64,000 bases of DNA from Candidatus Omnitrophota bacterium (GTDB lineage: Bacteria > Omnitrophota > Gorgyraeia > Zapsychrales > Zapsychraceae): NCBI GenBank assembly GCA_020632515.1, contig JACKFK010000009.1, positions 4,476 through 68,475 of the forward strand, in the 5' to 3' direction. This document shows, piece by piece, positions 4,521 through 23,750 of this stretch (its first letter is position 1; every line of letters begins with the position of its first letter). Made by a program: the position numbers and the translations under genes. The notes beneath the pieces were generated by a model, which had not been told where the DNA came from, searched no databases, and saw nothing but the letters and a program-made list of their open reading frames with translations.

Positions 4521-4539
4521 ACGAAATAGACAAAGAGTA

Positions 4540-5031: not shown

Positions 5032-5230
5032 TTCGGTAACTTTTTCAAGTTTTTGAAAGGGCGTTTGGTATTTAATGCCACCATGAACGCGCCTGTGATT
5101 GTAATCGTATATATATTGTCCTAATTGCTCTTTGAATTCTTCAATATCTTTAAATGTGTGTGGTCTAATAAGCTCGTTTTGAACAATTTTAAAGAAAGCC
5201 TCTACTTTACCATTAGGCTGAGGATAATAA
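5020..5230 (-). pseudogene. C-terminal remnant of a DDE (rve-type, IS481/IS3-like) transposase
   Basis: Only about 70 aa remain. They carry the integrase-core E region (PQPNGKVEAFFKIVQNE) and the tail YNHRRVHGGIKYQTP. The N-terminal part is replaced by the 50-nt repeat at 5229-5280. Confidence 0.7.
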
Positions 5231-5280
5231 AGAGAACGGACCAGGTACATCTCGAGGGACACGTTGAGTGAAAGCAGTTC
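5229..5280 (+). repeat. REP-like ~50-nt repeat, copy 1 (AAGAGAACGGACCAGGTACATCTCGAGGGACACGTTGARTGAAAGCAGTT)
   Basis: It is nearly identical to 5506-5558, 277 bp downstream. The 5' 17-mer also occurs at 4998-5015 and 5559-5577, and inverted at 6245-6258. Confidence 0.85.
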
Positions 5281-5505
5281 TGTTCATAAGTAAATATTCA
5301 TAAAAATATAAAACTCGACCATCAACCGCATGTCTTTTTATTTTTTATGAATATTTAACTTGAAACGTTATAACCCAAATAAAAAGCATTTGGGTTGTTA
5401 TTTATCAACTCTTTATTGAGACTTAAAATAACAAATCGAACCAAACATCGGTTCGATTTATAACTTGCATGCTCTTTGGAGAACGGGACAGACCCCGATG
5501 GGGAC

Positions 5506-5577
5506 AAAGAGAACGGACCAGGTACATCTCGAGGGACACGTTGAATGAAAGCAGTTTTAAGAGAACGGACCAGGTCC
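5506..5577 (+). repeat. REP-like repeat, copy 2, followed directly by a short third copy (AAGAGAACGGACCAGGTCC)
   Basis: Direct sequence identity with 5229-5280. It lies about 55 nt upstream of the first Y1 transposase gene. Confidence 0.85.
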
Positions 5578-5632
5578 AAAAAAGTGACAGGTCAAGCTGA
5601 AATTAAGCGGAGAAAGGATAGGTTATTGATGA

Positions 5633-6229
5633 ATGGCGCGGGTATCAAGGAATGAATTACTTTATAAAGATTGTTATGCTCATGTGATATCACGATCGAT
5701 TCGCAAAATGAAGATTTTTAACGATGAAGAGGATTTCATCCAGTTTAAATATTTACTTTTGCAGGCTAAGAAAATAGGTCAATTTCGGGTATATCATTAT
5801 TGTGCAATGCAAACGCATTTCCATCTGGCTGTACAAATGGGGGATGTATCATTATTTGCGAATGCAATTCGGGATTTAAAAAGATCTTATGTTTACTGGT
5901 TTCACACAAAATATAAAATTAGTGGGCCGATATGGCGGGAACGATATCGAAGTTTGTTGATTGAGGATGAGAATTATTTATATACGTGTGGATTGTATAT
6001 TGAAAACAATCCGGTGAAAGCTGGGTTAGTGCAGCAATCGGATCAATGGGCGCACAGTTCAAGTCGGTATTATATTAGAGGAAGTAATGATGTCCTAGTC
6101 GATGAATATGAAAGGGACGTTTGTAAAATGAGTGATATTATGCTTGATGAAGAGGATTTTGAAAAGGGAAGTGTGATTGGATCCAGTTTTTTCCGATTTC
6201 AGTTTTATGATAGGCGTAAGAGAAGCTGA
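5633..6229 (+). CDS. IS200-like / REP-associated tyrosine (Y1, HUH) transposase, copy 1
   Basis: It has the HUH motif (QTHFHLAV) and the catalytic Tyr helix (YIENNPVKAGLV), plus WRERY. It is flanked by GAACGGACCAGGTCC at 5563-5577 and its inverted copy at 6245-6258. Confidence 0.8.
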   Translation: MARVSRNELLYKDCYAHVISRSIRKMKIFNDEEDFIQFKYLLLQAKKIGQFRVYHYCAMQTHFHLAVQMGDVSLFANAIRDLKRSYVYWFHTKYKISGPIWRERYRSLLIEDENYLYTCGLYIENNPVKAGLVQQSDQWAHSSSRYYIRGSNDVLVDEYERDVCKMSDIMLDEEDFEKGSVIGSSFFRFQFYDRRKRS

Positions 6230-6260
6230 GGGGTCCCTCTGAAAGGACCTGGTCCGTTTT
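6228..6260 (-). repeat. Inverted REP-like copy (GGACCTGGTCCGTT) preceded by a GAGGGGTCCCTC near-palindrome
   Basis: The reverse complement of 6245-6258 equals AACGGACCAGGTCC, as found at 5564-5577. Confidence 0.7.
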
Positions 6261-6324
6261 GTTGTTTTGTTTTGGAGGGAAAGGTTGAGTTGAACGAGAA
6301 CGAATGCAAGAAAGGAGCGTTGCG

Positions 6325-7086
6325 ATGCGACGAACGAAAGGGAGAGGTGTTTTTGAATTAATTTTAACAGGGGTGGTCTGCTGCGGAATGCTGATGGGTG
6401 CGGCAGGAAAAGCTGAGAGTTTTATACTCATTAATGAGTTCCTGGCTGATCCGGCTAGCGGACCCAGCGGCGATGCCAATGGCGACGGGGCTACCTCAAG
6501 CAGTCAGGATGAATTCATCGAACTGCTTAACTACAGCGACGAGGATGTAAATCTTTCCGGCTGGTCTTTAAGCGACAATCTACGGACCCGCCATGTCTTT
6601 TCCGATTCTACGATTATTAATTCGTATGGTTATTTTGTCATTTTCGGCGGAGGCGACTTCTCGGCAGCCAATTGGCAAAGCGCTTCCACAGGAACGCTGG
6701 GTTTAAATAATTCCGGCGATACGATCACGCTGTTTAACAGCGATTTATTGCAGATTGATCAGATCGTTTATGGCAGTGAAGGCGGGCAAAACCAATCGCT
6801 GACACGGTTTCCGGAAGGGGTACCAGGGAGCCCCTTTGTTTTGCACAGTGAATTAGCCCAGGCGCAAGGTCGGTTGTTTTCGGTGGGTGAAAGTATCGAC
6901 GGCCAGCCGATCGCGCCGGAGATTGTCCTGCCGGAAGAGCCGTTGCCTGAGATGTCGGAGTCAGGGGAAAATCCCGTGGTGCCGGAGCTGCCGGTGGCCG
7001 TGTATTTTCTTGTTGGGTTGGCTGGGCTTCATTTCCAACGGAGAACGGTTCTCGCTAAAGTCTTGGCGGGAAAAACGTTGGAGTAG
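6325..7086 (+). CDS. Secreted lamin-tail-domain (LTD) protein with a PEP-CTERM-like C-terminal anchor (alternative start 6304)
   Basis: It has a signal peptide and the LTD pattern (ILINEFLADP..DEFIELLNYSDEDVNLSGWSLSD..GLNNSGDTITLFN). The C-terminus reads VPELPVAVYFLVGLAGLHFQRR. The gene is visibly GC-richer than its surroundings. Confidence 0.7.
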   Translation: MRRTKGRGVFELILTGVVCCGMLMGAAGKAESFILINEFLADPASGPSGDANGDGATSSSQDEFIELLNYSDEDVNLSGWSLSDNLRTRHVFSDSTIINSYGYFVIFGGGDFSAANWQSASTGTLGLNNSGDTITLFNSDLLQIDQIVYGSEGGQNQSLTRFPEGVPGSPFVLHSELAQAQGRLFSVGESIDGQPIAPEIVLPEEPLPEMSESGENPVVPELPVAVYFLVGLAGLHFQRRTVLAKVLAGKTLE

Positions 7087-7096
7087 AGGTGTCCCT

Positions 7097-7603
7097 ATGA
7101 TTCGCCCGCGACGGTTTTATTACGCCAAGTCTATTTATCACGTCATTGCCCGCGGCAATAATCGGCAGAAAATTCTGAAATACCCCACAGACAAACAATC
7201 CTTTTTGAATAGTCTGACAAAATATAAAGGGCTCTTTTCTTTCCGGTTATACGCTTTTGTGATAATGGACAATCACATCCATTTGATGATTGAGGCTGAT
7301 GAGCATTTTAATATCTCCAAAGTCATGCAAAGGATTTTATTGTCTTATAGCGCGAAATACCGTAGAAAATATAAATATGTGGGGCATGTCTGGCAGGGGC
7401 GGTTTGTGAGTTTCAATGTTAGCGGAGATCATTACGTGGAGGAGTGTTTGCAGTATATACACCGCAATCCTGTAAAGGCGGGAATTGTTGACGTTGAGGC
7501 AGATTATCGATGGAGTAGTGCGCGGTTTTATGTTAAGCGTAAGGTTGTTTCAGATGGTTTGCTGTATGATTTGGATTTAGATGGTTCTGAGGGACACTTC
7601 TAA
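7097..7603 (+). CDS. IS200-like / REP-associated tyrosine (Y1, HUH) transposase, copy 2 (diverged from copy 1)
   Basis: It has HUH (MDNHIHLMIE), GRFVS, and the Tyr helix (YIHRNPVKAGIV). The ATG at 7097 follows the LTD stop. The tracked 6887 start would overlap the LTD gene and is unlikely. Confidence 0.8.
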   Translation: MIRPRRFYYAKSIYHVIARGNNRQKILKYPTDKQSFLNSLTKYKGLFSFRLYAFVIMDNHIHLMIEADEHFNISKVMQRILLSYSAKYRRKYKYVGHVWQGRFVSFNVSGDHYVEECLQYIHRNPVKAGIVDVEADYRWSSARFYVKRKVVSDGLLYDLDLDGSEGHF

Positions 7604-7740
7604 CTTAAATACTTGCAGAGTATATTGTTGGAGAGAACCGTTCTCAAAGATGGGGTGTCTATTTGCGGGAAGGGCTGTCCGGGAGTGTCTGGGTTTGTCA
7701 TCTTGAAAAGTATAGGGGGATGTTGCATACTTGTCGGAAT

Positions 7741-8122
7741 TAGTGGTAAGTGATAAGTCAGAAGCAAGTCACAAGGTCACAAGGTCACAAGGTCACAAAG
7801 TTATAAGGTCGCAAAGTCATAAGGTTGCAAAGTCACAAAGTGTTGAATCCGGCAAAAGAATTTTAGCTATCAGGCATCAATTATCAGCTATCAAAAAGTA
7901 GTATGGTCTTCTGTCGCCAGGATACAGTGACCATTGAAAAGTCACAAAGCCACAAAGTCATAAAGTCACAAAGTCGCAGATATTTTGTAATCTAGCAACT
8001 TTATGACACGGTGACATTTTGAAATCTGACGACTGACAGCTGACAGCTACGAATCAGATAACTGACACGGTGACTTTGTGACAAGGATGTCGGATATGTG
8101 TGCCTGTGACTTTAAAATACTG
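7741..8122 (+). repeat. Octamer-array foldback element, copy B (full length, intergenic)
   Basis: It starts TAGTGGTAAGTGATAAGTCAG, followed by (GTCACAAR)n at 7767-7840. The conserved core is GAATCCGGCAAAAGAAT..TAGCTATCAG..GTCGCCAGGATRCAGTGACCA, with a second array at 7940-7977. GCAACTTTATGACACGGTGAC and inverted octamers (GTGACTTTGTGAC) follow near 8068-8084. Confidence 0.85.
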
Positions 8123-8135
8123 AGAGGATAACGAT

Positions 8136-9005
8136 ATGATTGCTTTTACAAAAACAGCCAAGAAAACATTTAAACATATGCAAAAACAAGCGCGCATTCG
8201 CAAAGATATTAGCCAATTGAAAGAGCAGATTGGTTTGGTACCTAAACAAATGGCGCAGATTATTAAGGAAGTGTTAAATGATATTTTAATCGATGTGGAT
8301 CGGGTTACGATCGATAATATCGAACAGTTACGCCAAGATATGCTTCAATCTTCGGCCGCGGTTGTCAAACGCGATTTTGGCGCTGGCGCTCCCGGAGCAA
8401 AACTTTCCAATAAAGAAATGAAAAACGGCCGTCTTGTTGAACAATCCGTGGCTGAGATTTGCGCTATGACCAGCAAAGATCCGAAGTGGGCGTTGTTGCT
8501 TTTTAAAATGATCCGCACGTTTCATCCATTTATTTGTTTAGAACTTGGAACCAGCGTTGGGATTTCATGTTGTTATCAAGCCTCTGCTTTAAAATTAAAT
8601 GGTGAGGGTCGCATGATAACGATTGAAGGTTCAGATGAAGTTGCCAAAGTGGCGCAGGCGAATATTCATGATCTGGAATTAAATAATGTCGAGATTCGTA
8701 TTGGCCGGTTTGATCAGCAGCTGCCAGAAATTTTAGAAGAATTAGTGGAGGTTGACTTCGCGTTTATCGATGGTCATCATGATGAACACGCGACGCTGGA
8801 ATATTTTGAACGAATTCATCCTTATCTATCAACGCAGGCGATTATTGTATTTGATGATATTAATTGGTCGGAAGGAATGAAGAGGGCGTGGAAACAAATT
8901 GTTGATGATCCGCGGATAAAATATAGTTTTGATTTAAACGCCATGGGGGTGTGTTTCTTAGATCAAAACCGAAAGACGAAAAGCCATTTTAAGGTTGAAT
9001 TATAA
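8136..9005 (+). CDS. Class I SAM-dependent (O-)methyltransferase
   Basis: It has the SAM-binding fold motif LELGTSVGIS and the downstream pattern FAFIDGHHDEHATLEYF..IVFDDINW, typical of the O-methyltransferase family 3-like group. Confidence 0.6.
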   Translation: MIAFTKTAKKTFKHMQKQARIRKDISQLKEQIGLVPKQMAQIIKEVLNDILIDVDRVTIDNIEQLRQDMLQSSAAVVKRDFGAGAPGAKLSNKEMKNGRLVEQSVAEICAMTSKDPKWALLLFKMIRTFHPFICLELGTSVGISCCYQASALKLNGEGRMITIEGSDEVAKVAQANIHDLELNNVEIRIGRFDQQLPEILEELVEVDFAFIDGHHDEHATLEYFERIHPYLSTQAIIVFDDINWSEGMKRAWKQIVDDPRIKYSFDLNAMGVCFLDQNRKTKSHFKVEL

Positions 9006-9028
9006 TAACCACCTCGTACAATAAAATT

Positions 9029-9154
9029 ATGAAGTCCATCTTTCTATTATTGGTGTTTTTGAATTTGATGATCAGTGGTTGTTCACGCATAAATTTACCC
9101 CATGTGCTTCAGCCAACAATCCAGCCGGAGAGTGCGGAAGCTCCAACCCAATAA
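9029..9154 (+). CDS. 41-aa putative lipoprotein (not in the ORF track)
   Basis: It reads MKSIFLLLVFLNLMISGCSRINLPHV.., with a signal peptide and a clear lipobox (LMISGC). The only support is the lipobox. Confidence 0.35.
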   Translation: MKSIFLLLVFLNLMISGCSRINLPHVLQPTIQPESAEAPTQ

Positions 9155-9179
9155 AAATTAAAGGTTTTCATTAAATATT

Positions 9180-10037
9180 ATGATAAACAATAATGCGATA
9201 TTATTAATTTCCTGTAAAGATCAGCGGGGGATAACCGCGGATATCACAAGATTTATTTTTGAACATAACGGCAATATCATCGACGCCCAGCAACATATCG
9301 ATGAGCAAAGCAATACTTTTTTTATGCGCGTGGAATGGGCGTTGGAAGGATTTGACTTGGCCAAAGACGGCATTGCCGCAACTTTTTCTTTGCTGGCCCA
9401 GAAGTATCAGATGGATTGGGAACTGAGCTTCAGTCAAGACCGGCCGCGTTTAGCGATTTTTGTTTCTAAACATCTGCATTGTTTATACGATTTATTGATC
9501 CGGTATAAATCCGGACGCCTTCCGTGTGAGATACCGCTTATTATCAGTAACCATCCGGACGCCAAAGACGCGGCGCGGGAATTTGATATTGATTTTGCCG
9601 AATTTCCGATTAACCCGCGTAATAAAAACGCGCAGGAAAAACGCGAGTTGGAATTATTAAAGCTCAAAAGGATCGACTGGATTGTTCTGGCGCGGTATCA
9701 TCAAATTCTGACGAAAGATTTTATTAGCCACTATGGAAATAAAATTATCAATATTCATCATTCGTTTTTACCCGCGTTTGCCGGCAAAAGTCCGTATGCC
9801 CAGGCTTATAAAAAGGGCGTGAAAATTATCGGCGCGACCAGTCATTTTGTGACAGAGAGTTTAGATGAAGGGCCGATTATTGAGCAGGATATCGTGCGGA
9901 TTAATCATCGCCATTCATTGATGGATTTGGTGCATAAAGGGGAAGACCTTGAAAAAATTGTACTTAACCGCGCGGTTATGCTTGCCTTAGAGAAAAAAAT
10001 CCTTACCTATCATAATAAGACCATTGTGTTCGGATAG
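9180..10037 (+). CDS. purU: Formyltetrahydrofolate deformylase
   Basis: An N-terminal ACT-like region (ILLISCKDQRGITADITRFI) is followed by a formyltransferase core (IINIHHSFLPAFAGKSPYAQAYKKGVKIIGATSHFVTESLDEGPII). Confidence 0.85.
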   Translation: MINNNAILLISCKDQRGITADITRFIFEHNGNIIDAQQHIDEQSNTFFMRVEWALEGFDLAKDGIAATFSLLAQKYQMDWELSFSQDRPRLAIFVSKHLHCLYDLLIRYKSGRLPCEIPLIISNHPDAKDAAREFDIDFAEFPINPRNKNAQEKRELELLKLKRIDWIVLARYHQILTKDFISHYGNKIINIHHSFLPAFAGKSPYAQAYKKGVKIIGATSHFVTESLDEGPIIEQDIVRINHRHSLMDLVHKGEDLEKIVLNRAVMLALEKKILTYHNKTIVFG

Positions 10038-10118
10038 TGGGATAGGGTACTCTATCTATCAATATTTATAAATCTAATTGTTATAGAATTTTGATATGTT
10101 ATACTTAAAGAAATATTT

Positions 10119-10358
10119 ATGAGTCCAACTGTATTTAGATATAAAAATTACCGTTTTTTCTTCTTTTCTCGTTAAGAACCAAGAATGCATATCCATGTAT
10201 CAAATCCTAATGGCGAGGCAAAGTTTTGGATTGAACCTATTATTGCATTGGATAGGTATACTGGATTAACAGATAAACAACTTAAAGAATGTCAAAGATT
10301 AGTTGAGGAACATCAAAATGAAATTAAAAAATCGTGGAAAAAGCATTTCAAAAGTTGA
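10119..10358 (+). pseudogene. DUF4160-family gene interrupted by an in-frame TAA at 10173-10175
   Basis: It reads MSPTVFRYKNYRFFFFSR*EPRMHIHVSNPNGEAKFWIEP.. . The family hallmark (F.F.S.E...PH.HV) spans the stop. The gene overlaps the downstream DUF2442 gene. Confidence 0.6.
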
Positions 10359-10578
10359 AGTCTTAAATATATCTTCTTTTGGAATATGGATTCTTGTTAG
10401 AGCGAATGAATATTTTCTTGCCTATAAAGACTTTCCTTGGTTTAAGAAAGCTACTTTAAAACAGATTCAAAATGTTAAATTGCTTCATGGTCACCATCTA
10501 TTTTGGCCAGAATTGGATGTTGATCTACATTTAGAATCTCTTTCCAACCTTGAAAAGTATTCCTTAGTTTATCAATAG
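10318..10578 (+). CDS. DUF2442-family protein (partner of DUF4160)
   Basis: The sequence ISKVEVLNISSFGIWILVRANEYFLAYKDFPWFKKATLKQIQNVKL fits the family. The two-gene DUF4160/DUF2442 arrangement is typical. Confidence 0.55.
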   Translation: MKLKNRGKSISKVEVLNISSFGIWILVRANEYFLAYKDFPWFKKATLKQIQNVKLLHGHHLFWPELDVDLHLESLSNLEKYSLVYQ

Positions 10579-10625
10579 GACTTAATTTTTTCTGTCGACT
10601 GACCACTGTCGACGGGAGACTACTC

Positions 10626-11375
10626 ATGCACATTGGACGAACAAGATTTAAAAAAGATATCATTACAGAATTTATGCTGCCGCAGCGAAAAGATTCACGT
10701 AAGGTGATGATTTTCTGCTCAGGGGTTCCAGGTTCACCGCATAAGGATGAGGTTCTGGATTTTTGGGCGCGTAAAGGATATTGGACTTTTTTCCCCCGCT
10801 ACCGTGGGACATGGGAAAGTGGAGGATCATTTTTAGCGCATTCCCCGCATAAAGATTTGTTAGATGTTATTGATGGCTTGAGTTCCAAAGAAAAATTTCA
10901 TGATTTCTGGGGTGGTAAGAATCATCAAATCAAACCAAAGAAGATTGTCATTGTTGGATCGAGTTTTGGTGGACCAGCCGCTATTCTCGCGTCACGGGAC
11001 CCGCGGGTGGATAAAGTGGTTTGTATCTCGCCGGTGGTAGATTGGGTAGCGGAAAATAAAGCAGATCCGTTGGATAAGTTATACACCTTTCTTAAGGACG
11101 CCTATGGCGGTGCGTATCGGATCCAGAAGAAAGATTGGAATAAACTCGCGCAAGGTCGTTTTTATAATCCGGTTCAGCATCTGCAAGAGTTAGACGGTCG
11201 GAAGATTTTGATTTTACATGCTAAAGACGATGAAATCGTTAAAGCCAAACCTGTCATTAAATTTGCTCAACAAACTCAAAGTCAGCTTGTCCTGCTTAAT
11301 AAGGGCGGACATCTTTCCTCGTCAATGCTCACCCTAGATCGCTATTACCGTAAAGTGATTTCTTTTCTAAAATAA
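10626..11375 (+). CDS. Alpha/beta hydrolase (S9/dienelactone-hydrolase-like)
   Basis: It has the nucleophile elbow GSSFGG and a late D..H region (HAKDDEIV, GGH). Confidence 0.6.
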   Translation: MHIGRTRFKKDIITEFMLPQRKDSRKVMIFCSGVPGSPHKDEVLDFWARKGYWTFFPRYRGTWESGGSFLAHSPHKDLLDVIDGLSSKEKFHDFWGGKNHQIKPKKIVIVGSSFGGPAAILASRDPRVDKVVCISPVVDWVAENKADPLDKLYTFLKDAYGGAYRIQKKDWNKLAQGRFYNPVQHLQELDGRKILILHAKDDEIVKAKPVIKFAQQTQSQLVLLNKGGHLSSSMLTLDRYYRKVISFLK

Positions 11376-11445
11376 AGGAATTTAATCCTTTTTTACCAGA
11401 CATATTTCAGTATACTTAGAGTATAAATAATTTCATTCATTTATT

Positions 11446-12996
11446 ATGTCTATGAAACCAATACAACAAGGCAAAATTTTATTATTTTCTCCTAATATGC
11501 GGGGGATGAAGGGGGGCGTTAACCGGATTCAACCGCCTTTGGGGATTGGATATTTGGCCGCCTTATTAGAGAAAAATGGGTATAAGGTGTATATCCGTGA
11601 TACCGCCTTAGAAGGATATTCACATCAAGTGCCGATTGACCAGGATCCGCGCATGGTCCTTATTGGCGAAAGTGATGCGAGCATATCTGAATATATCAAG
11701 AAAGTCAAACCCGACATGGTGGGTATTTCAATTTTATTTTCCAACCTGGCTGCCCACGCGCATCAATTAGCCGCGCTCGTCAAAAAAATCAATCCACGTA
11801 TTCCTGTTATATTAGGAGGGAATCATGTCACGAATGCGGTGCGCGATTATGTGTTTGCGCTAACCCCGGGCAATGAAGCTTATCATTTGCCGCGGGAGCT
11901 TAAAGAAATTCAAGATCCGAATGTGGATTATCTTATGACGGGTGAGTCTGATTTTGATTTTCTTGACTTTGTTCAAACTTATTTCGCCAAAAAGAGTCTT
12001 GAGAATATTCGGGGTTTAGTTATGCAGAACGATCAGAAAGAGGTTGTTTTTAATCACGCGCATTTGAAAAAAGAACGCCGGGATTTGAAAGATCTTCCCC
12101 ATCCCGCGCGGCATTTAATGAATATGGAAGGTTATTTTAAGGTCGGATTATTTCATTCTTCACAAACGAAATCTAATAGAATTTTAAGTGTGATGGCGTC
12201 GCGGGGATGTCCGGAAAAATGTTCCTTTTGCACGACTCCGGCCATGTGGGGCTCCAAAGTGCGCTGGCGTGAACCTCAAGACATTTATAAAGAAATCAAA
12301 TCATGCATTAAGAAATACCGTGTTGGTGAGGTTCATTTTGAAGATGATACATTAACCGCGCACAAGAAATACTTGTTAGAACTGTGTGATTTGCTGGAAC
12401 CGTTAAAGATTCCATGGTGCACACCCAACGGAACGAAAATTAATTATCATTTAAAGACACAGCCGCAGTTGTTTCAACGCATGGTGGATGCTGGATGTTA
12501 TCAGATTACACTGGCGTGTGAAAGCGGGGTGCAAAGGGTGTTAGATCACATTATTCATAAGAATCTGAAGATTGAGCAAATTAAACCAGCGATTAAGAAT
12601 GCGAAAGAAGCGGGCCTGTTTGTTCATACCTTTTGGATTGTGGGATATCCCGGCGAAACGCGGCAGGAGATGGAAGAAACAATCCGTTTCGCTGCTGAGT
12701 CGGGCGCGGATAGTTTTTCGGTTTCCATTTTGACGCCGTTACCGGGTACGCCGATTTACCGTCAAGTCATGAAAGAAAATCTTTGGTGGGATTCAGATAA
12801 GGGGATTGAGCAGATGATTTACCGCAATTCTCTTATTAAAGTTGACGGCTTTCAGAATCCGGAAGCATTTGAACAATGGGTGCAGCAGCAGAACGCGTAT
12901 TTAAATAGCCTTCTTCAGAAAAACAATCCGCAAAGGGCACAAGAATTAATCAAGAGTCGTCGGGGAAAGGATTTATTAAAGATTAAGCAGACGTAG
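11446..12996 (+). CDS. B12-binding-domain radical SAM protein
   Basis: An N-terminal cobalamin-binding-like Rossmann region is followed by the CxxxCxxC cluster motif (SRGCPEKCSFCTTP). Confidence 0.7.
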   Translation: MSMKPIQQGKILLFSPNMRGMKGGVNRIQPPLGIGYLAALLEKNGYKVYIRDTALEGYSHQVPIDQDPRMVLIGESDASISEYIKKVKPDMVGISILFSNLAAHAHQLAALVKKINPRIPVILGGNHVTNAVRDYVFALTPGNEAYHLPRELKEIQDPNVDYLMTGESDFDFLDFVQTYFAKKSLENIRGLVMQNDQKEVVFNHAHLKKERRDLKDLPHPARHLMNMEGYFKVGLFHSSQTKSNRILSVMASRGCPEKCSFCTTPAMWGSKVRWREPQDIYKEIKSCIKKYRVGEVHFEDDTLTAHKKYLLELCDLLEPLKIPWCTPNGTKINYHLKTQPQLFQRMVDAGCYQITLACESGVQRVLDHIIHKNLKIEQIKPAIKNAKEAGLFVHTFWIVGYPGETRQEMEETIRFAAESGADSFSVSILTPLPGTPIYRQVMKENLWWDSDKGIEQMIYRNSLIKVDGFQNPEAFEQWVQQQNAYLNSLLQKNNPQRAQELIKSRRGKDLLKIKQT

Positions 12997-13080
12997 TTAT
13001 GATTTTTATGCTGTTTCAACGCAGTGGACGTTTTTCTCTTCCTTCTTTTTTCCTTTTACTTTTCTGATATAATCAATCCC

Positions 13081-13557
13081 ATGAATCATTCTTTTAAAGT
13101 AGGTTTAAGTTTTGGCATGATGTCCGGGATTATCACGACCTTGGGGCTAATGGTCGGGTTAAACGCGGGTACCGAATCCAAGCAGGCGGTTTTAGGCGGC
13201 ATTATTATTATTGCTGTGGCCGACGCTTTTTCTGATGCGCTTGGTATCCATATTTCCGAAGAAGCCGAAAATGTGCATACCGCCAAAGAGGTTTGGCTTT
13301 CAACAGTATCAACTTTCTTTTCAAAATTTCTATTTTCTTCGCTTTTTATCCTGCCGGTAATTTTATTTGAACTTAAGCGCGCGGTTTTTGTTTCGATTGG
13401 TTTTGGTTTTAGTCTAATTGTTACGATTAGTTTTCTATTGGCGAAGGAGCAGAAGATTAATCCTTGGAAAGTAATCTTTGAACATGTTTTTGTGACGGGC
13501 GTGGTAATTCTTTGCACCTATCATATTGGGGAATGGGTGAAGACGTTAGGCGGATAA
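13081..13557 (+). CDS. VIT1/CCC1-like small integral membrane protein
   Basis: It has the motifs GLSFGMMSGIITTLGLMVG and AVADAFSDALGIHISEE and several TM helices. The ATG at 13081 is preferred over the GTG at 13024. Confidence 0.45.
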   Translation: MNHSFKVGLSFGMMSGIITTLGLMVGLNAGTESKQAVLGGIIIIAVADAFSDALGIHISEEAENVHTAKEVWLSTVSTFFSKFLFSSLFILPVILFELKRAVFVSIGFGFSLIVTISFLLAKEQKINPWKVIFEHVFVTGVVILCTYHIGEWVKTLGG

Positions 13558-13558
13558 G

Positions 13559-14530
13559 ATGAGTGTGGCTAGAAATAAATTTATGACAGCAGAGCGGATT
13601 GATTATCAAGGCGAGGTTTTTGCTAATCGCGTCCGGCGGCAATACAATCATCTGCGTAAACGTTTTGCCCGGCAGAATATTGATTGTTTTCGTTTGTATG
13701 ATTGGGATATCCCTGAGGTGCGGGCGGTGGTGGATTGGTATGCTGGGCATTTGGTTGTTGGAGAGTATGTCCGCACGCAGACAGGCCCGCAATGGCTTGG
13801 ACAAATGGCGCAAGCTGTTGCTGCCGCGTTAGGGGTTGCTGCAGAGAATACGCATGTGAAAAAAAGGCAGACTAACACGAAGGGGTCTGTTCGTTATCGA
13901 CGGATGGGTTCGCAGAAGAAACGTTTTATTGTTCGTGAACGTGATTTGAAGTTCTGGGTTAACCTGGATGATTTTTTAGATACGGGTCTGTTTTCTGATC
14001 ATCGCGAAACACGCGTGCTTGTCCGGGATATGGCTAAGGGAGAAAATTTTCTGAATCTGTTTGCGTATACCGGTGCTTTTACGTGTGCTGCAGCCTTAGG
14101 CGGTGCTAAATCTACGGTGACGGTGGATCGTTCGCAAACATATATGAATTGGGCTCAGGATAATTTAAAGCTAAATAAACTTTGGGGAAAGGCGCATGCT
14201 CTTGTTCAGTCTGATACGGATAAATTTCTCATTAAGGCTTTTAAAGATAAACAGAAATTTTCTTTGGCAGTGATTGATCCGCCGTCATTTTTTCGCAATC
14301 GCGCCAATCAAGTGGCTTTTGATATTAATCGGGATCATCCGCAATTACTGAAAGACGTATTAAAGATTATGGTCAAAGGCGCAAAAATTTTCTTTTCCAC
14401 GAATCATCAACGGTTTGAACCGCAGTTTAATGATTTGGCTGTTAAAGATATTAAGGAGCTCACGCCGCAAACAATTCCCATTGATTACCGTAACCGGAAG
14501 ATTCATCGCTGTTGGATGATATCGGTATGA
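13559..14530 (+). CDS. Class I SAM-dependent rRNA methyltransferase (RlmK/RlmI-like)
   Basis: It has NLFAYTGAFTCAAALGGA, TVDRSQTYMNWAQDNLKLN and the catalytic DPPSF motif. Confidence 0.65.
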   Translation: MSVARNKFMTAERIDYQGEVFANRVRRQYNHLRKRFARQNIDCFRLYDWDIPEVRAVVDWYAGHLVVGEYVRTQTGPQWLGQMAQAVAAALGVAAENTHVKKRQTNTKGSVRYRRMGSQKKRFIVRERDLKFWVNLDDFLDTGLFSDHRETRVLVRDMAKGENFLNLFAYTGAFTCAAALGGAKSTVTVDRSQTYMNWAQDNLKLNKLWGKAHALVQSDTDKFLIKAFKDKQKFSLAVIDPPSFFRNRANQVAFDINRDHPQLLKDVLKIMVKGAKIFFSTNHQRFEPQFNDLAVKDIKELTPQTIPIDYRNRKIHRCWMISV

Positions 14531-14631
14531 AATGATGGTGGAGACGAGAAGATTTCTGTATTTTAATTGAAGAGCAGGGAATTATCGTTTAAGATAAATT
14601 GGTTTTAATTTTAAGAAAAGAGATATGATTG

Positions 14632-14904
14632 ATGGCGTCGGAAAAAAATATTCAGTGGGAAGCTTCAACAAAGTTAAAATTTGAACAAATGGTGGAGAAA
14701 GTGCCGGTATTTCTGCGCGGGATGGCGCAGGAAAAGGTGGAGAAACGGGCCTTTGAACTGGTCGCGCAAGATCAGCGCACTATTATTGAAGAGAAAGATT
14801 TGGTTACGGCGTTTTTTGATGCCACACCGTTTGGTTTTCATGGACCGATGAAATGTGATATGGAAGAGTTAGGGATTGATTATACGAAGTATGGGTTTGA
14901 TTAG
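14632..14904 (+). CDS. Small protein with a PCP-reductase-type (protochlorophyllide reductase C-terminal-like) domain
   Basis: The sequence WEASTKLKFEQMVEKVPVFLRGMAQEKVEKRA resembles the PCP_red domain. This assignment is from memory only. Confidence 0.35.
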   Translation: MASEKNIQWEASTKLKFEQMVEKVPVFLRGMAQEKVEKRAFELVAQDQRTIIEEKDLVTAFFDATPFGFHGPMKCDMEELGIDYTKYGFD

Positions 14905-15212
14905 TGGTAAGCGCTAAGTGATTAGTGGTAAGTCAGAGAAAGTCACAAGGTCACAAGGTCACAAAGTCGCAAAGTGCCGAATCCGGTAAAAGAATCTTAG
15001 CTATTAAACATCAGTTTTTAGAAAAGTAATGGTCTCCTGTCGCCAGGATGCAGTGACCAGTGAAAAAGCCACAAAGCCACAAAGCCAACAAAGTCATAAA
15101 GTCACAAAGTCGCAGATATTTTGTAATCTAGCAACTTTATGACACGGTGACTTTGCAACATTGTGACCTTGTGACATTCTGAATACTGACAGCTACGCAC
15201 CGGATAACTGAA
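14902..15212 (+). repeat. Octamer-array foldback element, copy C (full length, fills the whole intergenic gap)
   Basis: The left arm 14932-14977 (GTCAGAGAAAGTCACAAGGTCACAAGGTCACAAAGTCGCAAAGTGCC) is approximately the reverse complement of the right arm 15141-15190. The internal core and second array (15068-15112) are shared with copy B. The element starts on the upstream stop codon and ends 7 nt before the next ATG. Confidence 0.9.
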
Positions 15213-15218
15213 ATAATT

Positions 15219-15443
15219 ATGTCCAAACTTCAACCAGGTATTTACGAGCATTATAAAGGGAAGCGTTATGAAGTGATCGGTGTGGCTTTGCACAGCGAAA
15301 CTTTAGAAGAGCTTGTTGTCTATAAAGCCCTTTATAAATCCGAATACCCGGAAGGTTCGCTATGGGTTCGACCGTTAGCCATGTTTACTGAGCAAGTTGG
15401 AGTGAAAGAAAAGCAAGTTCCACGTTTTCGTTTAATCTCATGA
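15219..15443 (+). CDS. DUF1653-family protein
   Basis: YEHYKGKRYEVIGVALHSETLEELVVYKALY..LWVRPLAMF matches the family hallmark. Confidence 0.7.
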   Translation: MSKLQPGIYEHYKGKRYEVIGVALHSETLEELVVYKALYKSEYPEGSLWVRPLAMFTEQVGVKEKQVPRFRLIS

Positions 15444-15685
15444 GTGAATCAAATTCAGAATCATCAGAAATACTACCTGATGAAGAATTTCTTTTTAAAT
15501 TAGCCCGGGCGCGGATGCCGTTTGGACGGTATCAGGGGCGTCTGCTCATTGATTTGCCAGAAAGTTATGTGGTCTGGTTTTCTCAGAAAGGTTATCCTAA
15601 AGGGATGTTAGGCGATATGTTAAAAAGCCTTTATGAGATTAAATTAAATGGGTTGGAGTATTTGCTGGTGCCATTTAAGAAGTGA
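15440..15685 (+). CDS. DUF3820-family protein
   Basis: It has MPFGRYQGRLLIDLPESYVVWFSQKGYPKG. Its start overlaps the upstream stop by 4 nt. Confidence 0.65.
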   Translation: MSESNSESSEILPDEEFLFKLARARMPFGRYQGRLLIDLPESYVVWFSQKGYPKGMLGDMLKSLYEIKLNGLEYLLVPFKK

Positions 15686-15758
15686 GTGAGTCTTGACTAC
15701 GAATGAATGGATGGTATACTTAAGCGTAAAACAGATTCTATATCGATAGGAGATTGGT

Positions 15759-15971
15759 ATGATAAATACGGTTACGGTTTCTCCCAAATTCCAAGTTGTT
15801 ATCCCTCTTAGTATACGAAAAAGTGCTGGGATACAAGCTGGTGAAAAAATGCAGGTTTTATGTTTTGATGACCGCATAGAATTAATCCCTATTAAGAGTA
15901 TTAAATCAATGCGGGGGTTTATTAAGGGAAAGAAGAATGTTTTTCAGCGAGAGAAAAGAGATCGTATATGA
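15759..15971 (+). CDS. vapB: AbrB/SpoVT-fold antitoxin (VapB-like)
   Basis: It has TVSPKFQVVIPLSIRKSAGIQAGEKM and overlaps the downstream PIN gene by 4 nt. Confidence 0.7.
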   Translation: MINTVTVSPKFQVVIPLSIRKSAGIQAGEKMQVLCFDDRIELIPIKSIKSMRGFIKGKKNVFQREKRDRI

Positions 15972-16339
15972 ATTTAGTTGATTCTTCCGGATGGGTGGAA
16001 TATTTTCTGAATGACAAAAAAGCAAGTCAATTTAGTAAGCCTATTGAAACAATTAAAAATCTTATTGTTCCCAGCATTGTTGTTTTTGAAGTTTTTAAAT
16101 ATTTTCTTAGGGAAAGTGATGAAACTCATGCGTTAAAAGCTATTTCAGCGATGCATGTGGGTAACATTGTTGATTTAACTGTCGACTTATCTTTACAGGC
16201 AGCCAAACTCAGTAATTCTCATAAGATTGCGATGGCTGATAGTATTATTTTAGCAACAGCTCGTAAGTTTAATGCGATGATATGGACTATGGATACGGAT
16301 TTTAAAAAATTTGATAATGTTAAGTTTTTTGGTAAATAA
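15968..16339 (+). CDS. vapC: PIN-domain toxin (VapC-like)
   Basis: It starts MNLVDSSGWVEYF and later has acidic PIN residues (ADSIILATA, MDTDF). The size and the operon are typical of type II TA systems. Confidence 0.7.
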   Translation: MNLVDSSGWVEYFLNDKKASQFSKPIETIKNLIVPSIVVFEVFKYFLRESDETHALKAISAMHVGNIVDLTVDLSLQAAKLSNSHKIAMADSIILATARKFNAMIWTMDTDFKKFDNVKFFGK

Positions 16340-16365
16340 CACTTTTAAAAGATAAACTATTCTCA

Positions 16366-16755
16366 GTGGAAGCTATTAAAGTTCGTTTAGATAAATGGCT
16401 TTGGGCGGTGCGGATTTGTAAAACACGGACGATCGCCACAGATTTATGCAAGCGTCAACGGGTCACTATCAACGGTCAGTATGCAAAACCTTCCCGCGAT
16501 ATTTCTCCTGGAGATCTTATTGTAATCAAAAAAGACGGCATCGAATGGCAGTATAAAGTCTTACAAGGCATTGATAAACGGGTTGGTGCCAAGATTGCGG
16601 CGCAAGCTTGTGAAGATGTGACACCAGCGGAGGCGTTAGCGAAGTTTAAGATGGTGAAATCTTCTTGGGTGCCGCGGCGGGATAAAGGCGCTGGCCGCCC
16701 AACCAAAAAAGATCGAAGAGAGATGGAGAGGTTTTTAGATAGTGATAAGTGTTAA
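16366..16755 (+). CDS. hslR: S4-domain RNA-binding heat-shock protein 15-like (GTG start)
   Basis: RLDKWLWAVRICKTRTIATDLCKRQRVTINGQYAKPSRDISPGDLI is an S4 domain. Confidence 0.7.
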   Translation: MEAIKVRLDKWLWAVRICKTRTIATDLCKRQRVTINGQYAKPSRDISPGDLIVIKKDGIEWQYKVLQGIDKRVGAKIAAQACEDVTPAEALAKFKMVKSSWVPRRDKGAGRPTKKDRREMERFLDSDKC

Positions 16756-16900
16756 GTGATAAGTGAAAAATAAGTTAAGAAATCACAAGGTCACAAAGTG
16801 CCGAATCCGGCAAGAAAACCTTAGCTATCAGACATCAGTTACAATTTGATCAACTAATTTTATGACTTTTTTTCAGTCAGTGGAGACTGGAGATTCGCGA
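16741..16900 (+). repeat. Octamer-array element, copy D (shortened)
   Basis: It reads GTGATAAGTGTTAAGTGATAAGTG..AATCACAAGGTCACAAAGTGCCGAATCCGGCAAGAAAACCTTAGCTATCAGACATCAG, then CAACTAATTTTATGAC. The middle section and the right arm are missing. Its start overlaps the hslR stop. Confidence 0.75.
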
Positions 16901-16937
16901 CTAATATAATAATTATTCAACGAGAAAGGTAACTCAC

Positions 16938-17366
16938 ATGGCAGACATCACGCACAAAATTACAATCAACACATCTAAAGAAAAGGTTTATCAGGCGATC
17001 GCCACAGTTGACGGACTTAAAGGTTGGTGGACTGAGCATATCGATGGAGCCAGTGCGGAAGGTCAGCAATTGACATTTCGTTTTCCCAATACAGGTCCTG
17101 TCATGGAAGTTTTAGAGTTGATGACGGATGAGTTTATAAAGTGGAAATGTGTTGACGGTGTTGAAGACTGGAAAAACACAATTTTAACATTTGAGTTAGA
17201 AGAAAAAGATAATAATTGTGAATTATTATTCGCTCATTCGGGGTGGGGTGATCAATCCGAATTTTATGCGCATTGCAGTATGAAATGGGCAGTATTTCTA
17301 TTAAGTTTGAAAGAATACTGTGAAACCGGTAAGGGCCAACCATTTCCTGACGATATCAAAACTTAA
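16938..17366 (+). CDS. SRPBCC / AHSA1-like domain protein
   Basis: It has VYQAIATVDGLKGWWT and an overall length of about 140 aa, typical of Aha1/START-like proteins. Confidence 0.55.
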   Translation: MADITHKITINTSKEKVYQAIATVDGLKGWWTEHIDGASAEGQQLTFRFPNTGPVMEVLELMTDEFIKWKCVDGVEDWKNTILTFELEEKDNNCELLFAHSGWGDQSEFYAHCSMKWAVFLLSLKEYCETGKGQPFPDDIKT

Positions 17367-17380
17367 GTGTTGGCAATATT

Positions 17381-17839
17381 ATGAAATTATCTGTCATTAT
17401 TCCTGTTTATAATGAGGAAAAGCCGCGGCTGTGCTTAAAGGTTTCAAGAGGCTGCGGGTGATATTTTCTAATTCAAGACGCAGACCTGGAATATGATCCG
17501 GCGCAGTATCCCGAATTAATTCAGCCAATTATCGACGGGAAATACCAGGTTGTCGACAAATGAATCTTTTCATTTGGCCTTATCAGAACTAAAAGAATTA
17601 AAATTCGCAACTATTCACAGAGATGAATGAGAGCGCCTACGGATGCAGGCTGAACATAAAGGTGAAGAGACGATCAAGTTGATGGGAAAGATGTTGAAGC
17701 CTTTAAGGTTTACTATTTCGCCACCGGACTTCAGGAAAAGTATTACAACCGCATCTATTACTACCGTAAATCAGACGGCATTTTTGTGAAAAAAGTCGAA
17801 CCTAAAGGCGAAGTCGAAGAGCTGGTGGAGGAGAAGTAA
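17381..17839 (+). pseudogene. Decayed region: family-2 glycosyltransferase fragments plus an orphan C-terminal gene fragment
   Basis: MKLSVIIPVYNEEK is followed by a stop after 26 codons. IQDADLEYDPAQYPELIQPIIDGK lies in another frame at about 17468-17545. A start-less open tail (..VYYFATGLQEKYYNRIYYYRKSDGIFVKKVEPKGE*) ends at 17839. Confidence 0.65.
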
Positions 17840-21477: not shown

Positions 21478-22929
21478 ATGGGAAGTTTTAAAAAGAAAAA
21501 GAAACGGTTTTTTGATACGCTCATTCAATCATCTTCGGGTAATTATGTTCGGCCTAAGGATGAGATGATGTATAAGCGTTTGATTGAGCGGGTTCAATGC
21601 GGCGTGTATATTGCCGATGAAAAGGGTATTATTTTTTATGTCAATTCCGCCTTAGTCAGCATGCTGGGATACAATACCAAGAGTGAAATTCTAGAACGGC
21701 CTTTAACCGATGTTCTTTATGGCGCGCCAAATCACGAGGAATCATTTTATGATGAAATGGATGAATTAGGGTTTGTCAGGGATTATGAAATTCTTGCTCA
21801 AAACGCGCAAGGGGAAGAAATTCATTTGATTGTGACTAGTCATTACATTCGCGAAGGAGAAGGCAAGATAAAAGGCATTGAGGGAATTGTTTATGATCGG
21901 ACAAAATCAAAGAAAATGCAAGAGATGGTCATCAAGGAAAAACATAAACTTGAAGAGATTTTGGACTTAGGTGAAAAAGTCACACTTATTCGTAATTTGG
22001 ATGAGTTAATTGAGTTTATCGTTAAACGTGTGGCGGGTATTTTAGAAGCGCGTGTTTGCTCGATCATGTTGGTTGATGAAAAAACTGGACGGTTAATGAT
22101 CAGCGGGGCTTTTGGATTAGAACAAAATATTGTTGAAGAAAGTGCTGTTGAAATTGGTGAACAGATTTCGGGTGTCGTGGCCAAAGATTTGAATCCATTG
22201 TTGGTAAAGAATATCGAATATGATGAACGGTTTAAACGGGCGAATCGGCCGCATTATCGCAATCATTCATTTATTGTCGTTCCAATTACATTAGGAGATG
22301 AATTGTTGGGGGTTATTAATGTGGCAGATAAAATTTCAGAAGGCGCGATGATTAAGACTTTTGATGAAATAGATTTAAAAATTTTAGTGTCTATTGCCCG
22401 GGAGATTGCAGTATCCATTGATAATGTGAAAGTGATTGAAGATTTAAATTTGCAGACGGTGACAGATCCTTTAACCAGGATTTATAATTACCGGAAATTT
22501 TCCGATAGTCTGGAGCATGAAGTTAGGCGTCTGCGGCGGATTAAAGGAAACCTTTGTGTTATGATGATGGATTTAGATGAATTTAAGTCTTATAACGATA
22601 CCTTTGGGCATTTAGAAGGGGATATATTATTGCGCGGAATTGGTGAGATTTTACGTAAAAGTCTTCGTGATACAGATATTGTTTGCAGATACGCGGGGGA
22701 TGAGTTTGTTATTGTCCTGCCGGATACGGATATTTCCGGGGTTAAAGAATCTGCTGTTAAGGTGATTAAAACCGTAAATGAATTTCAGTTTAAGCGTCAA
22801 GTGAGTGTTAGTGTTGGTTGCGCGCAATATCAGGAAGGGATGACCTCGAATGAATTGATGTTAAAAGCGGATAAGGCATTATATGAAGCCAAGAATAAAG
22901 GAAAAAATCAGTTTTATATAATAGAATAA
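21478..22929 (+). CDS. PAS-GAF-GGDEF diguanylate cyclase (AGDEF variant with an intact RxxD I-site)
   Basis: The PAS-like N-terminus and GAF region are followed by a GGDEF domain. That domain has DPLTRIYNYRKF, DLDEFKSYND and the active-site stretch LRDTDIVCRYAGDEFVIVL, with RDTD five residues before AGDEF. Confidence 0.8.
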   Translation: MGSFKKKKKRFFDTLIQSSSGNYVRPKDEMMYKRLIERVQCGVYIADEKGIIFYVNSALVSMLGYNTKSEILERPLTDVLYGAPNHEESFYDEMDELGFVRDYEILAQNAQGEEIHLIVTSHYIREGEGKIKGIEGIVYDRTKSKKMQEMVIKEKHKLEEILDLGEKVTLIRNLDELIEFIVKRVAGILEARVCSIMLVDEKTGRLMISGAFGLEQNIVEESAVEIGEQISGVVAKDLNPLLVKNIEYDERFKRANRPHYRNHSFIVVPITLGDELLGVINVADKISEGAMIKTFDEIDLKILVSIAREIAVSIDNVKVIEDLNLQTVTDPLTRIYNYRKFSDSLEHEVRRLRRIKGNLCVMMMDLDEFKSYNDTFGHLEGDILLRGIGEILRKSLRDTDIVCRYAGDEFVIVLPDTDISGVKESAVKVIKTVNEFQFKRQVSVSVGCAQYQEGMTSNELMLKADKALYEAKNKGKNQFYIIE

Positions 22930-23614: not shown

Positions 23615-23750
23615 GATCGATAAAGGTAAACCTTCCGCAAGGATGGGACACAAAACTATCTCGACGTATTGTTGGATAAATAAAGTCGAGACCCCGATAG
23701 GATCGGGGCAGGGTCCTTAAATTTTTAAGGATAGCCAGTTGCCGTAACAG
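23615..23750 (+). promoter_or_regulatory. Probable c-di-GMP class I (GEMM-I-like) riboswitch aptamer
   Basis: GGTAAACCTTCCGCAAGGATGGGACACAAAAC parallels the GEMM-I core GGCAAACC-(stem, GNRA loop)-GGGACGCAAAGCC. The helix CCTTCC/GGATGG is capped by GCAA. There is a CTCGAC/GTCGAG helix, and a distal TAGCCAGTTGCCGTAA resembles GGTAGCGGGGTTACCGA. Confidence 0.5.

Follow-up and report, generated by a model that had tools for sequence, protein, structure and literature searches.

A modular, foldback-like intergenic repeat with octamer arrays in a Candidatus Omnitrophota bacterium

We describe a repeat rich in GTCACAAR octamers in a 64,000-nt stretch of DNA (the window, numbered from its first nucleotide) from a Candidatus Omnitrophota bacterium (GenBank assembly GCA_020632515.1, contig JACKFK010000009.1, positions 4,476–68,475, forward strand), and compare it with the closest described systems. 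The pneumococcal BOX element is built as boxA-(boxB)n-boxC with a boxB unit of ~45 nt, and has more than 100 copies per genome. The Foldback (FB) transposons of Drosophila and other eukaryotes are kilobase-sized, and some carry a transposase. The short tandemly repeated repetitive (STRR) heptamers of cyanobacteria are comparable to the TAACTGA heptamers. The latter form direct repeats in marine Beggiatoaceae, Cyanobacteria and Bacteroidetes, running over upstream stop codons and standing a few nt ahead of start codons without a ribosome-binding site (MacGregor 2015, PMC4679880).

Repetitive extragenic palindromes (REPs), the bacterial interspersed mosaic elements (BIMEs) and the REPINs occur with the REP-associated tyrosine transposases (RAYTs) in Enterobacteria and Pseudomonas. 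A REP consists of one palindrome of 20–40 nt that bears a GTAG or CGTC tag, and its RAYT is flanked by this same REP (PMC2817692, PMC3116915, PMC3733652). Bacterial miniature inverted-repeat transposable elements (MITEs) such as Correia/NEMIS and Nezha are defined by terminal inverted repeats (TIRs) matching a parent insertion sequence (IS) and by target-site duplications (PMC3184786). The class 1 global regulator sites of Geobacter metallireducens hold four GTTGCTYN octamers on opposite strands in 24 pairs, and the function of the paired sites, binding of IHF/HU, is only hypothesised (Aklujkar 2009, PMC2700814).

The window contains the octamer GTCACAAR 25 times where 3.1 ± 1.8 are expected, none of 100 dinucleotide shuffles reaches this count, and 20 of the 25 lie in four places. 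Copies were aligned with MAFFT and nhmmer, and tandem arrays were found with Tandem Repeats Finder (TRF). A profile made from copies B (7741–8122, nhmmer E 2e-132) and C (14896–15212, E 1e-107) matches exactly four places in the window, namely B, C, A (179–278) and D (16746–16842), with zero matches in the remaining 47 kb from 17 to 64 kb. Every copy is on the plus strand and oriented like its flanking genes.

The alignments trace all four places to one ancestral unit, present in no fewer than two full copies, as a single 5′ fragment and as an array now part of a coding region. We give about an even chance to the reading that this unit is a lineage-restricted, non-coding, non-autonomous, modular MITE/BOX/BIME-like intergenic repeat and not the cognate REP of the neighbouring RAYTs. 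It is then a fairly ordinary kind of bacterial intergenic repeat with an unusual build, apparently of an undescribed family. The MITE/BIME-like architecture with foldback potential that the initial annotation had proposed for a modular repeat family is borne out by the module collinearity, the partial copies and the folding.

The common order of parts noted earlier for B and C agrees with the alignments, in which the module order is identical. It runs from a stop-rich heptamer head of TGRTAAG units through octamer array 1, the core GAATCCGGnAAAAGAATnTTAGCTAT and an A+T-rich linker to the module GGTCTyCTGTCGCCAGGATrCAGTGACCA, followed by forward octamer array 2, a 67-nt block, inverted octamers, CTGACAGCTAC, i.e. 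CTGACAG(CTAC), and GATAACTGA. TRF reports period-8 arrays at 130–161, 198–294, 7766–7841, 7938–7975, 14939–14975 and 15065–15109, and period-7 arrays at 14898–14933, 16741–16766 and 8033–8048. The octamers hold a strict 8-nt register over 4–12 units on both strands.

The unique modules are 81–99% identical between the copies, which differ chiefly in the numbers of 7-, 8- and 14-nt tandem units. Array 1 has 10 units in B and 4 in C, and the A+T-rich linker of B has an additional 14-nt tandem. The copies would have diverged mainly by gain and loss of such tandem units via replication slippage. The 67-nt block is identical at 66 of 67 positions (B 7952–8018, C 15088–15154), and this single mismatch compares with 17 in 116 positions of the other unique modules (binomial P = 3e-4). 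The block is far better kept than the rest, which points to constraint or to recent gene conversion.

Copy C fills the gap between a DUF2621-like open reading frame (ORF) with its stop at 14902–14904 and a DUF1653 ORF with its ATG at 15219. Its heptamer register begins at ~14896, so the head takes in the final two codons of the upstream gene together with its stop. The head (14896–14938, TGATTAG TGGTAAG CGCTAAG TGATTAG TGGTAAG TCAGAGA, TRF period 7) has stops in frames 0, 1 and 2. Forward array 1, the left foldback arm (14939–14975), holds four GTCACAAR/GTCGCAAA units. The core GAATCCGGTAAAAGAATCTTAGCTAT (14979–15004), common to B, C and D, carries at its 5′ end a mini-hairpin GCCG-AAUC-CGGY (z −3.7).

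The GGTCT module GGTCTCCTGTCGCCAGGATGCAGTGACCA (15031–15059) is identical to B at 31 of 34 positions and makes a weak hairpin in plus-strand RNA (z −1.7, not significant). Forward array 2 of C (15065–15109, GCCACAAA, GTCATAAA, GTCACAAA and similar units) runs into the 67-nt block (15088–15154). The right foldback arm is the inverted octamer arm GTGACTTT GCAACATT GTGACCTT GTGACATT at 15147–15182. The tail CTGACAGCTAC..GATAACTGA (15186–15211) is identical to B at 23 of 27 positions, and its single TAACTGA (15205–15211) ends 7 nt before the ATG, where a Shine-Dalgarno sequence is not evident.

Copy B lies between the gene RAYT-2 and a methyltransferase gene (ATG 8136). It comprises the head (7741–7764), array 1 (7765–7841), the core (7845–7870), the GGTCT module (7905–7933), array 2 (7938–7975), the 67-nt block (7952–8018), 2.3 copies of CTGACAG (8033–8048), GATAACTGA (8057–8065) and extra inverted octamers (8066–8112). 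Its right side is rearranged relative to C. There, ACACGGTGAC occurs twice (8007–8016 and 8066–8075) and brackets the CTGACAG/TAACTGA tail, and the inverted octamers then follow. The single TAACTGA of B (8059–8065) is 70 nt from the ATG.

Copy D (16734–16842, E 1e-13) covers profile positions 48–144 and consists of a heptamer head (16734–16781), two octamers (16782–16797) and the core (16803–16828), being 86% identical to C in the paired direct-repeat segment. The sequence after it (16843–16937) scores 17 in local alignment with the right halves of B and C, where shuffles average 16, so that the similarity is not significant. Since this tail is no more similar to them than shuffled sequence is, D counts as a 5′ fragment, and the internal deletion once ascribed to it is not demonstrated. 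The last ~95 nt of the D gap are unique and hold a promoter-like site matching at 10 of 12 positions, TGGAGA-18-TATAAT (16881–16910), before the next gene.

All three frames are stopped in the heads of C and D, and two in that of B. In the initial annotation, the elements filled their gene-to-gene gaps exactly, and C and D began on the stop codon of the upstream gene. The first statement is right for C only, as B starts 137 nt past the RAYT-2 stop, away from any gene end, and the D gap ends in unique sequence. The second likewise holds for C only, with its TAG at 14902–14904. In D, the stop TAA (16753–16755) of an S4/Hsp15-like ORF lies inside the head, which supplies it, and this ORF reads five codons into the head.

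The C-terminus of the S4/Hsp15-like protein is just 1–3 residues longer than in its homologues, and the DUF2621 match of the ORF upstream of C reaches profile position 135 of 139. With the one protein not truncated and the other match near full-length, the elements adjoin the ends of genes and leave them intact. The small ORFs within B and C were also considered as genes and rejected, for their frames shift across the octamers and their C-termini are not conserved between the copies.

Copy A (130–294, nhmmer E 5e-14) is in frame inside the ORF at 9–4520, which has the Pfam matches RHS_repeat, fn3 and GH115_C, in keeping with its earlier assignment to an RHS ORF. Its parts are four octamers (130–161), a head-like segment (176–201) and a 12-unit octamer array (202–294). 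The head-like segment is 75% identical to the B head and has lost every in-frame stop relative to it. This part of the large RHS/fn3 protein seems to be built of translated non-coding-type repeats. After the array and still in frame (315–403) come a 31-nt repeat of 2.3 units (AGCAACAAGCCCTTCGACTTCGCTCAGGACA) and AGCAACC in 3.9 units. Further on in the same ORF (761–2524), three ~800-nt tandem units, up to 91% identical, match GH115_C-like and fn3 domains.

As plus-strand RNA, copy C is predicted to make a near full-length foldback with a minimum free energy (MFE) of −97.2 kcal/mol (z −6.6), and its plus strand also folds as single-stranded DNA (z −5.7). The MFE structure has array 1 base-paired to the inverted octamers, and the head to the tail. 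The 33-nt arms at 14943–14975 and 15150–15182 are 88% complementary, so the left arm was correctly described as close to the reverse complement of the right one. Inverted complementarity is only partial in B with its rearranged right side. The 67-nt block is the best local hairpin, with −21.9 kcal/mol (z −5.5) for plus-strand and −29 kcal/mol (z −7.6) for minus-strand RNA.

From these features a course of action can be proposed for the intergenic repeat. The element would be co-transcribed with the same-strand genes on both sides, and in whatever frame the upstream gene is read, its translation would end in the head. A long stem-loop would be formed, in the mRNA or as single-stranded DNA, by the inverted arrays together with the 67-nt hairpin. 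On the model of REP/BIME and BOX, this stem may serve as an intercistronic structure bearing on mRNA stability, processing or relative expression rather than as a terminator or promoter. Such an intercistronic structural effect appears the most plausible one.

No intrinsic terminator, a G+C-rich hairpin with a T-run, is present inside the elements on either strand. The region 7500–17500 has 4 terminator-like sites against a shuffle mean of 7.7, and none of them is in an element. Likewise, the copies share no conserved −35/−10 pair, and the elements hold only weak promoter-like matches. These results speak against the bidirectional terminator or promoter donor that had been suggested. In Rfam, permissive scans of both full elements gave only generic miRNA-precursor (hairpin) matches far below the gathering threshold, and the gathering scan of the whole window gave only a c-di-GMP-I riboswitch outside the elements.

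Among the described systems, the element resembles REP/BIME in being an intergenic, palindromic mosaic of motifs, with stem-loops presumably co-transcribed between the genes of an operon and with RAYT genes nearby. It is unlike REP in that its arms are arrays of an 8-nt octamer without a tag, that the neighbouring RAYTs are flanked by other palindromes, and that the window has just four copies, all in 17 kb, and none over its other 47 kb. No conserved GTAG or CGTC tag was found, as GTAG is in the B linker (AAAAGTAGTATGG) and is absent at the matching place of C (AAAAGTAATGG).

The likeness to MITEs lies in the small size (100–400 nt), the non-coding nature, the terminal inverted complementarity, the location at gene ends and the presumed co-transcription. 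Neither TIRs matching a parent IS nor a target-site duplication was found, and of the features that define MITEs only the inverted repeat was seen. Like BOX of Streptococcus pneumoniae, it has fixed end modules, a variable tandem internal module and predicted stable hairpins, is co-oriented and presumably co-transcribed with genes, and has no transposase of its own. It differs from BOX in its units of 7–8 nt, shows no sequence similarity to it and belongs to another phylum.

RAYT-1 (5633–6229) and RAYT-2 (7097–7603) both have Pfam Y1_Tnp matches and the HUH and Y motifs, and RAYT-2 scores 85.8 bits for NCBIfam REP_Tyr_transpos against a cut-off of 80. RAYT-2 is bracketed by its own 13-nt palindrome GAGAACSGTTCTC, as GAGAACGGTTCTC at 7041–7053 and GAGAACCGTTCTC at 7633–7645, 44 nt upstream and 30 nt downstream of the gene. 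This plus-strand unit (7041–7645) is judged to lie outside the element. So is that of RAYT-1 (5001–6263, plus strand), which is bracketed by AGAGAACGGACCAGGT in four direct copies (~5001, 5230, 5507 and 5560) and one inverted copy (6233–6263).

In the 64 kb, the GAGAACSGTTCTC and AGAGAACGGACCAGGT(CC) palindromes occur nowhere beyond their own RAYT flanks. The upstream RAYT-2 palindrome falls inside the 3′ end of a lamin-tail-domain (LTD) gene. RAYT-2 homologues with 53–61% identity at three other Omnitrophota loci (L022–L024) are bracketed by analogous palindromes such as TAGACCGGGTCTA and TAGACCGTTTCTA/TAGAAACGGTCTA, and no octamer arrays are present in the 10-kb surroundings of these loci. 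The cognate REP of a RAYT is usually taken to be the repeat on its flanks, in inverted orientation, and by this rule the flanking palindromes are the cognate repeats of these RAYTs. The element's only connection to a RAYT is that copy B begins ~95 nt past the downstream palindrome of RAYT-2.

The octamer element therefore does not appear to be the cognate REP of the neighbouring RAYTs, and we find no support for a link to them. Mobilisation of a REP/BIME-type element by these Y1 transposases, as the initial annotation envisaged, would account for two RAYT-family genes 0.1–2 kb upstream of copy B. Imperfect hairpins abound in the element, and Y1 transposases recognise hairpins of this kind when the DNA is single-stranded. 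Y1 elements are expected to share one orientation on a strand of uniformly positive GC skew, as all copies do, but co-orientation with the genes explains the orientation equally well. Since genes, GC skew and elements are all co-oriented, it cannot discriminate. With the different palindromes of both RAYTs, the three homologous loci free of octamer arrays, no conserved GTAG/CGTC-tagged palindrome in the element, and no RAYT or GAGAAC palindrome near C and D, we consider RAYT mobilisation unlikely.

As an observation on the RAYTs themselves, RAYT-like Y1 genes lie just downstream of RHS/YD-shell (SpvB/TcdB-type) toxin loci at three independent Omnitrophota loci. These are 9–7603 of the window, 1–10513 of L023 (GCA_040753675.1, JBFMEB010000013.1) and 204–12269 of L024/L025 (JGI 3300021183 and 3300017598). 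The LTD protein is also found both in the window and in the L024/L025 RHS-RAYT loci. L024 has two RAYT copies, each with arrays of its palindrome.

The comparison with heptamer repeats raises another explanation. Like TAACTGA/STRR, the element has short intergenic tandem units, forward to the downstream gene, with stops in all frames. Its head unit (TAAGTGA / TGRTAAG) differs from TAACTGA by one base, with a single TAACTGA closing both B and C. The heads of C and D overlap upstream stops and the TAACTGA of C lies 7 nt before the ATG, as in the TAACTGA repeats, a placement from which B departs. Tandem TAACTGA is absent from the window, which has 12 single ones against 7.5 expected. Unlike those repeats, the dominant unit here is an octamer, the arrays are part of a longer element that also has inverted arms and unique hairpin modules, and the host is Omnitrophota.

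The Geobacter sites are likewise multicopy, mostly intergenic tandem octamers, with two opposite-strand sites at a variable distance. They differ in their octamer and in a unit number fixed at four, and shared central modules are not described there. These two systems suggest that the arrays might be platforms for a sequence-specific protein, either a nucleoid or regulatory DNA-binding protein, as suggested for Geobacter, or a post-transcriptional regulator that binds single-stranded RNA, as suggested for Beggiatoaceae, with the foldback being secondary. The strict 8-nt register of 4–12 units on both strands agrees with it. So do the TAACTGA-related heptamers overlapping upstream stops and the TAACTGA 7 nt before an ATG without Shine-Dalgarno sequence, a placement as in PMC4679880, as well as the Geobacter precedent of 24 pairs of four GTTGCTYN on opposite strands (PMC2700814) and a GTCACAAA array in non-coding DNA of the cyanobacterial plasmid pRF1.

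However, a candidate binding protein was not found, the units vary freely in number and sequence between copies, TAACTGA is never tandem and copy A is translated through. Moreover, the Geobacter and Beggiatoaceae precedents (PMC2700814, PMC4679880) are hypotheses themselves. We regard the binding platform as improbable, if somewhat less so than mobilisation by the RAYTs.

The comparison with FB leads to a bolder proposal. As in FB transposons, the inverted arms are made of short tandem repeats, and the repeat number varies between the copies. Unlike them, the element is bacterial and small, and no sign of transposition was seen. It might be a bacterial counterpart of the eukaryotic Foldback elements, a mobile intercistronic cassette with octamer-array arms that sets translational coupling or relative expression. 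Its insertion would give a three-frame stop upstream and a TAACTGA-type start-proximal motif downstream, and the long stem would bring the upstream stop and the downstream start together. It would possibly act through an octamer-specific binding protein shared with the similar arrays of a cyanobacterial plasmid. We think this cassette doubtful, at about the level of the RAYT mobilisation.

The preferred reading of an intergenic repeat restricted to one lineage was set against large collections. The core motif GAATCCGGNAANANAANNTTAGCTAT has 0 matches in the genome contigs of 185,579 species, with one genome per species and the source metagenome-assembled genome (MAG) not among them. In JGI metagenomes, which likewise do not include the source MAG, its one match is by chance, inside an ArsA-like coding gene, and is no true match. 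In the viral contigs of IMG/VR, both this motif and CTGTCGCCAGGATNCAGTGACCA have 0 matches, and a triple-octamer scan of viral contigs found only one intergenic array, in a giant-virus MAG and in an unrelated context (L019, 783–861).

The 56-aa ORF of copy B, compared with 5.8 billion proteins, has its sole match in a gene-free Tara Oceans contig with GGTTACAA/GGTCACAA arrays (L003, 2000–2110). BLAST of copy C found nothing among phages, and among plasmids only an array of four GTCACAAA followed by GTTGCAAG and ATTGTTTG octamers in non-coding DNA of the Leptolyngbya plasmid pRF1 (NC_004964.1, L031, 4130–4181). Over all retrieved loci, the B+C profile matches only contigs of the same organism and the octamer arrays in the unrelated contexts of L003, L019 and pRF1. 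A literature search for the octamer gave nothing relevant. With no Rfam match, no true core match in the collections and no literature match, the family appears to be undescribed, as was supposed at the outset. For the tandem arrays of GTCACAAA/G in pRF1, the Tara Oceans contig and the giant-virus MAG, convergence by slippage and a shared origin are both possible.

The elements are also present at the same sites in contigs from the runs SRR12358675, SRR14234112 and SRR17907852 and in the MAG GCA_020430025.1, with 98.7–100% identity. Since these four other assemblies hold them at the same sites, they are not an assembly artefact. The short-read contigs from the three runs and the second MAG all break inside elements, and the breaks are explicable without copies beyond B, C and D. 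The contig of the second MAG (JAGQKR010000354.1, L029) is 99.8% identical to the window from 7886 on, and its first ~25 nt (ACACAATTATTCATACTAGCTATC) differ from the copy B linker (window 7862–7886). Here either the 14-nt tandem may vary between strains or the end of the contig may be joined to another copy.

Several results weigh against the preferred reading. A uniform scatter of four copies over 64 kb would place all of them within the first 17 kb with P ~0.005 by our own calculation, and with only four copies, all within 17 kb, a family dispersed genome-wide is not established. No empty site was seen in the four other assemblies, all with elements at the same sites. Loci anchored by PurU in 15 genomes reach at best 64% identity (in Omnitrophota) without synteny, and the closest non-identical Hsp15 homologue, also of Omnitrophota, is 68% identical and not syntenic. 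The nearest relatives thus share just 64–68% protein identity and no synteny, which limits the comparison for empty sites. No direct repeat is evident as a target-site duplication at the ends of B or C, whose exact ends are unfixed with two full copies and no empty site.

The folding of copy B adds to these points. As plus-strand RNA, it makes a weak foldback (−103.7 kcal/mol, z −3.2) in which the centroid disagrees with the MFE structure. As minus-strand RNA, it reaches −118.9 kcal/mol (z −6.9) with a centroid close to the MFE structure. The minus strand of C also has the lower energy (−104.5 kcal/mol, z −6.6), so both copies are more stable as the strand antisense to the genes, a poor fit to a function in sense mRNA. 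Of the stable fold that was to be checked, C thus has it in RNA and single-stranded DNA, and B has it on the minus strand and not on the plus strand.

The stability of B, C and the 67-nt hairpin as minus strands, together with the unusual conservation of the 67-nt block, would suit an element encoding a structured minus-strand antisense RNA or small RNA. But in any such array, composition favours the folding of the G+U-rich strand, and covariation is uninformative with just two full sequences, B and C. There is no Rfam match and no intrinsic terminator on either strand of the elements, with only weak promoter-like matches. We consider such an RNA very unlikely.

A more serious alternative is that the copies are a local product with no function, tandem tracts of one 17-kb island homogenised by ectopic recombination or gene conversion and then expanded by slippage. 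All copies lie in the first 17 kb, where the G+C content is 0.40–0.50 in most parts, including the RHS gene and the RAYTs, against 0.32–0.38 in most of the rest; the GC skew is positive throughout the window. The near-identical 67-nt block amid modules that differ by ~15% is a mosaic typical of conversion tracts. The module order of B is rearranged, and neither a target-site duplication nor an empty site was found. No parent IS with matching ends is present in the window, in which the two RAYTs with their different flanks are the only transposase genes.

Against the local product, the copies flank unrelated genes without flanking homology, and the C and D heads are precisely on or over gene ends. 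The C head-tail pair is like terminal inverted repeats, and a fourth copy, A, is inside a gene 7.4 kb away. We judge the local product possible, though clearly less probable than the lineage-restricted intergenic repeat. For the latter, insertion events are suggested by elements that abut gene ends precisely, by a head and tail that are complementary and by copy A inside a gene, whereas the clustering of four copies in 17 kb and the mosaic of divergence argue for a local process or a genomic island. The copies may have spread by trans-acting transposition or by local recombination or gene conversion.

If dispersed genome-wide, the element would give the large uncultured phylum Omnitrophota its first described repeat family and would be a rare bacterial foldback element with short-tandem-array arms. 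It would then also be useful as a strain-typing marker of the variable-number tandem repeat (VNTR) type and explain the short-read assembly fragmentation at these sites. Moreover, the RAYT link is corrected in that the RAYTs of this Omnitrophota lineage have their own short palindromes.

Integron attC sites were considered for the small, unrelated same-strand flanking genes, including a MazE/PIN pair, and rejected by inspection, with no formal scan made. No integrase was among the proteins screened, RYYYAAC/GTTRRRY ends were not seen, and only 2–3 of ~8 junctions have an element. An origin from Beggiatoaceae or Cyanobacteria, which the TAACTGA-like motifs had suggested, was rejected, since HIP1 is not enriched in the window and the proteins are those of Omnitrophota. 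Outside the elements, the c-di-GMP-I riboswitch (23615–23698, 35.7 bits against a gathering threshold of 35) lies upstream of a 1352-aa ORF (23812–27870), and a GGDEF diguanylate cyclase gene is at 21478–22929. Another ORF (36626–39979, 1117 aa) contains about seven tandem 93-nt coding repeats at 39137–39879, which are Cys-rich with the motif GxxCDDGN..GDGC.

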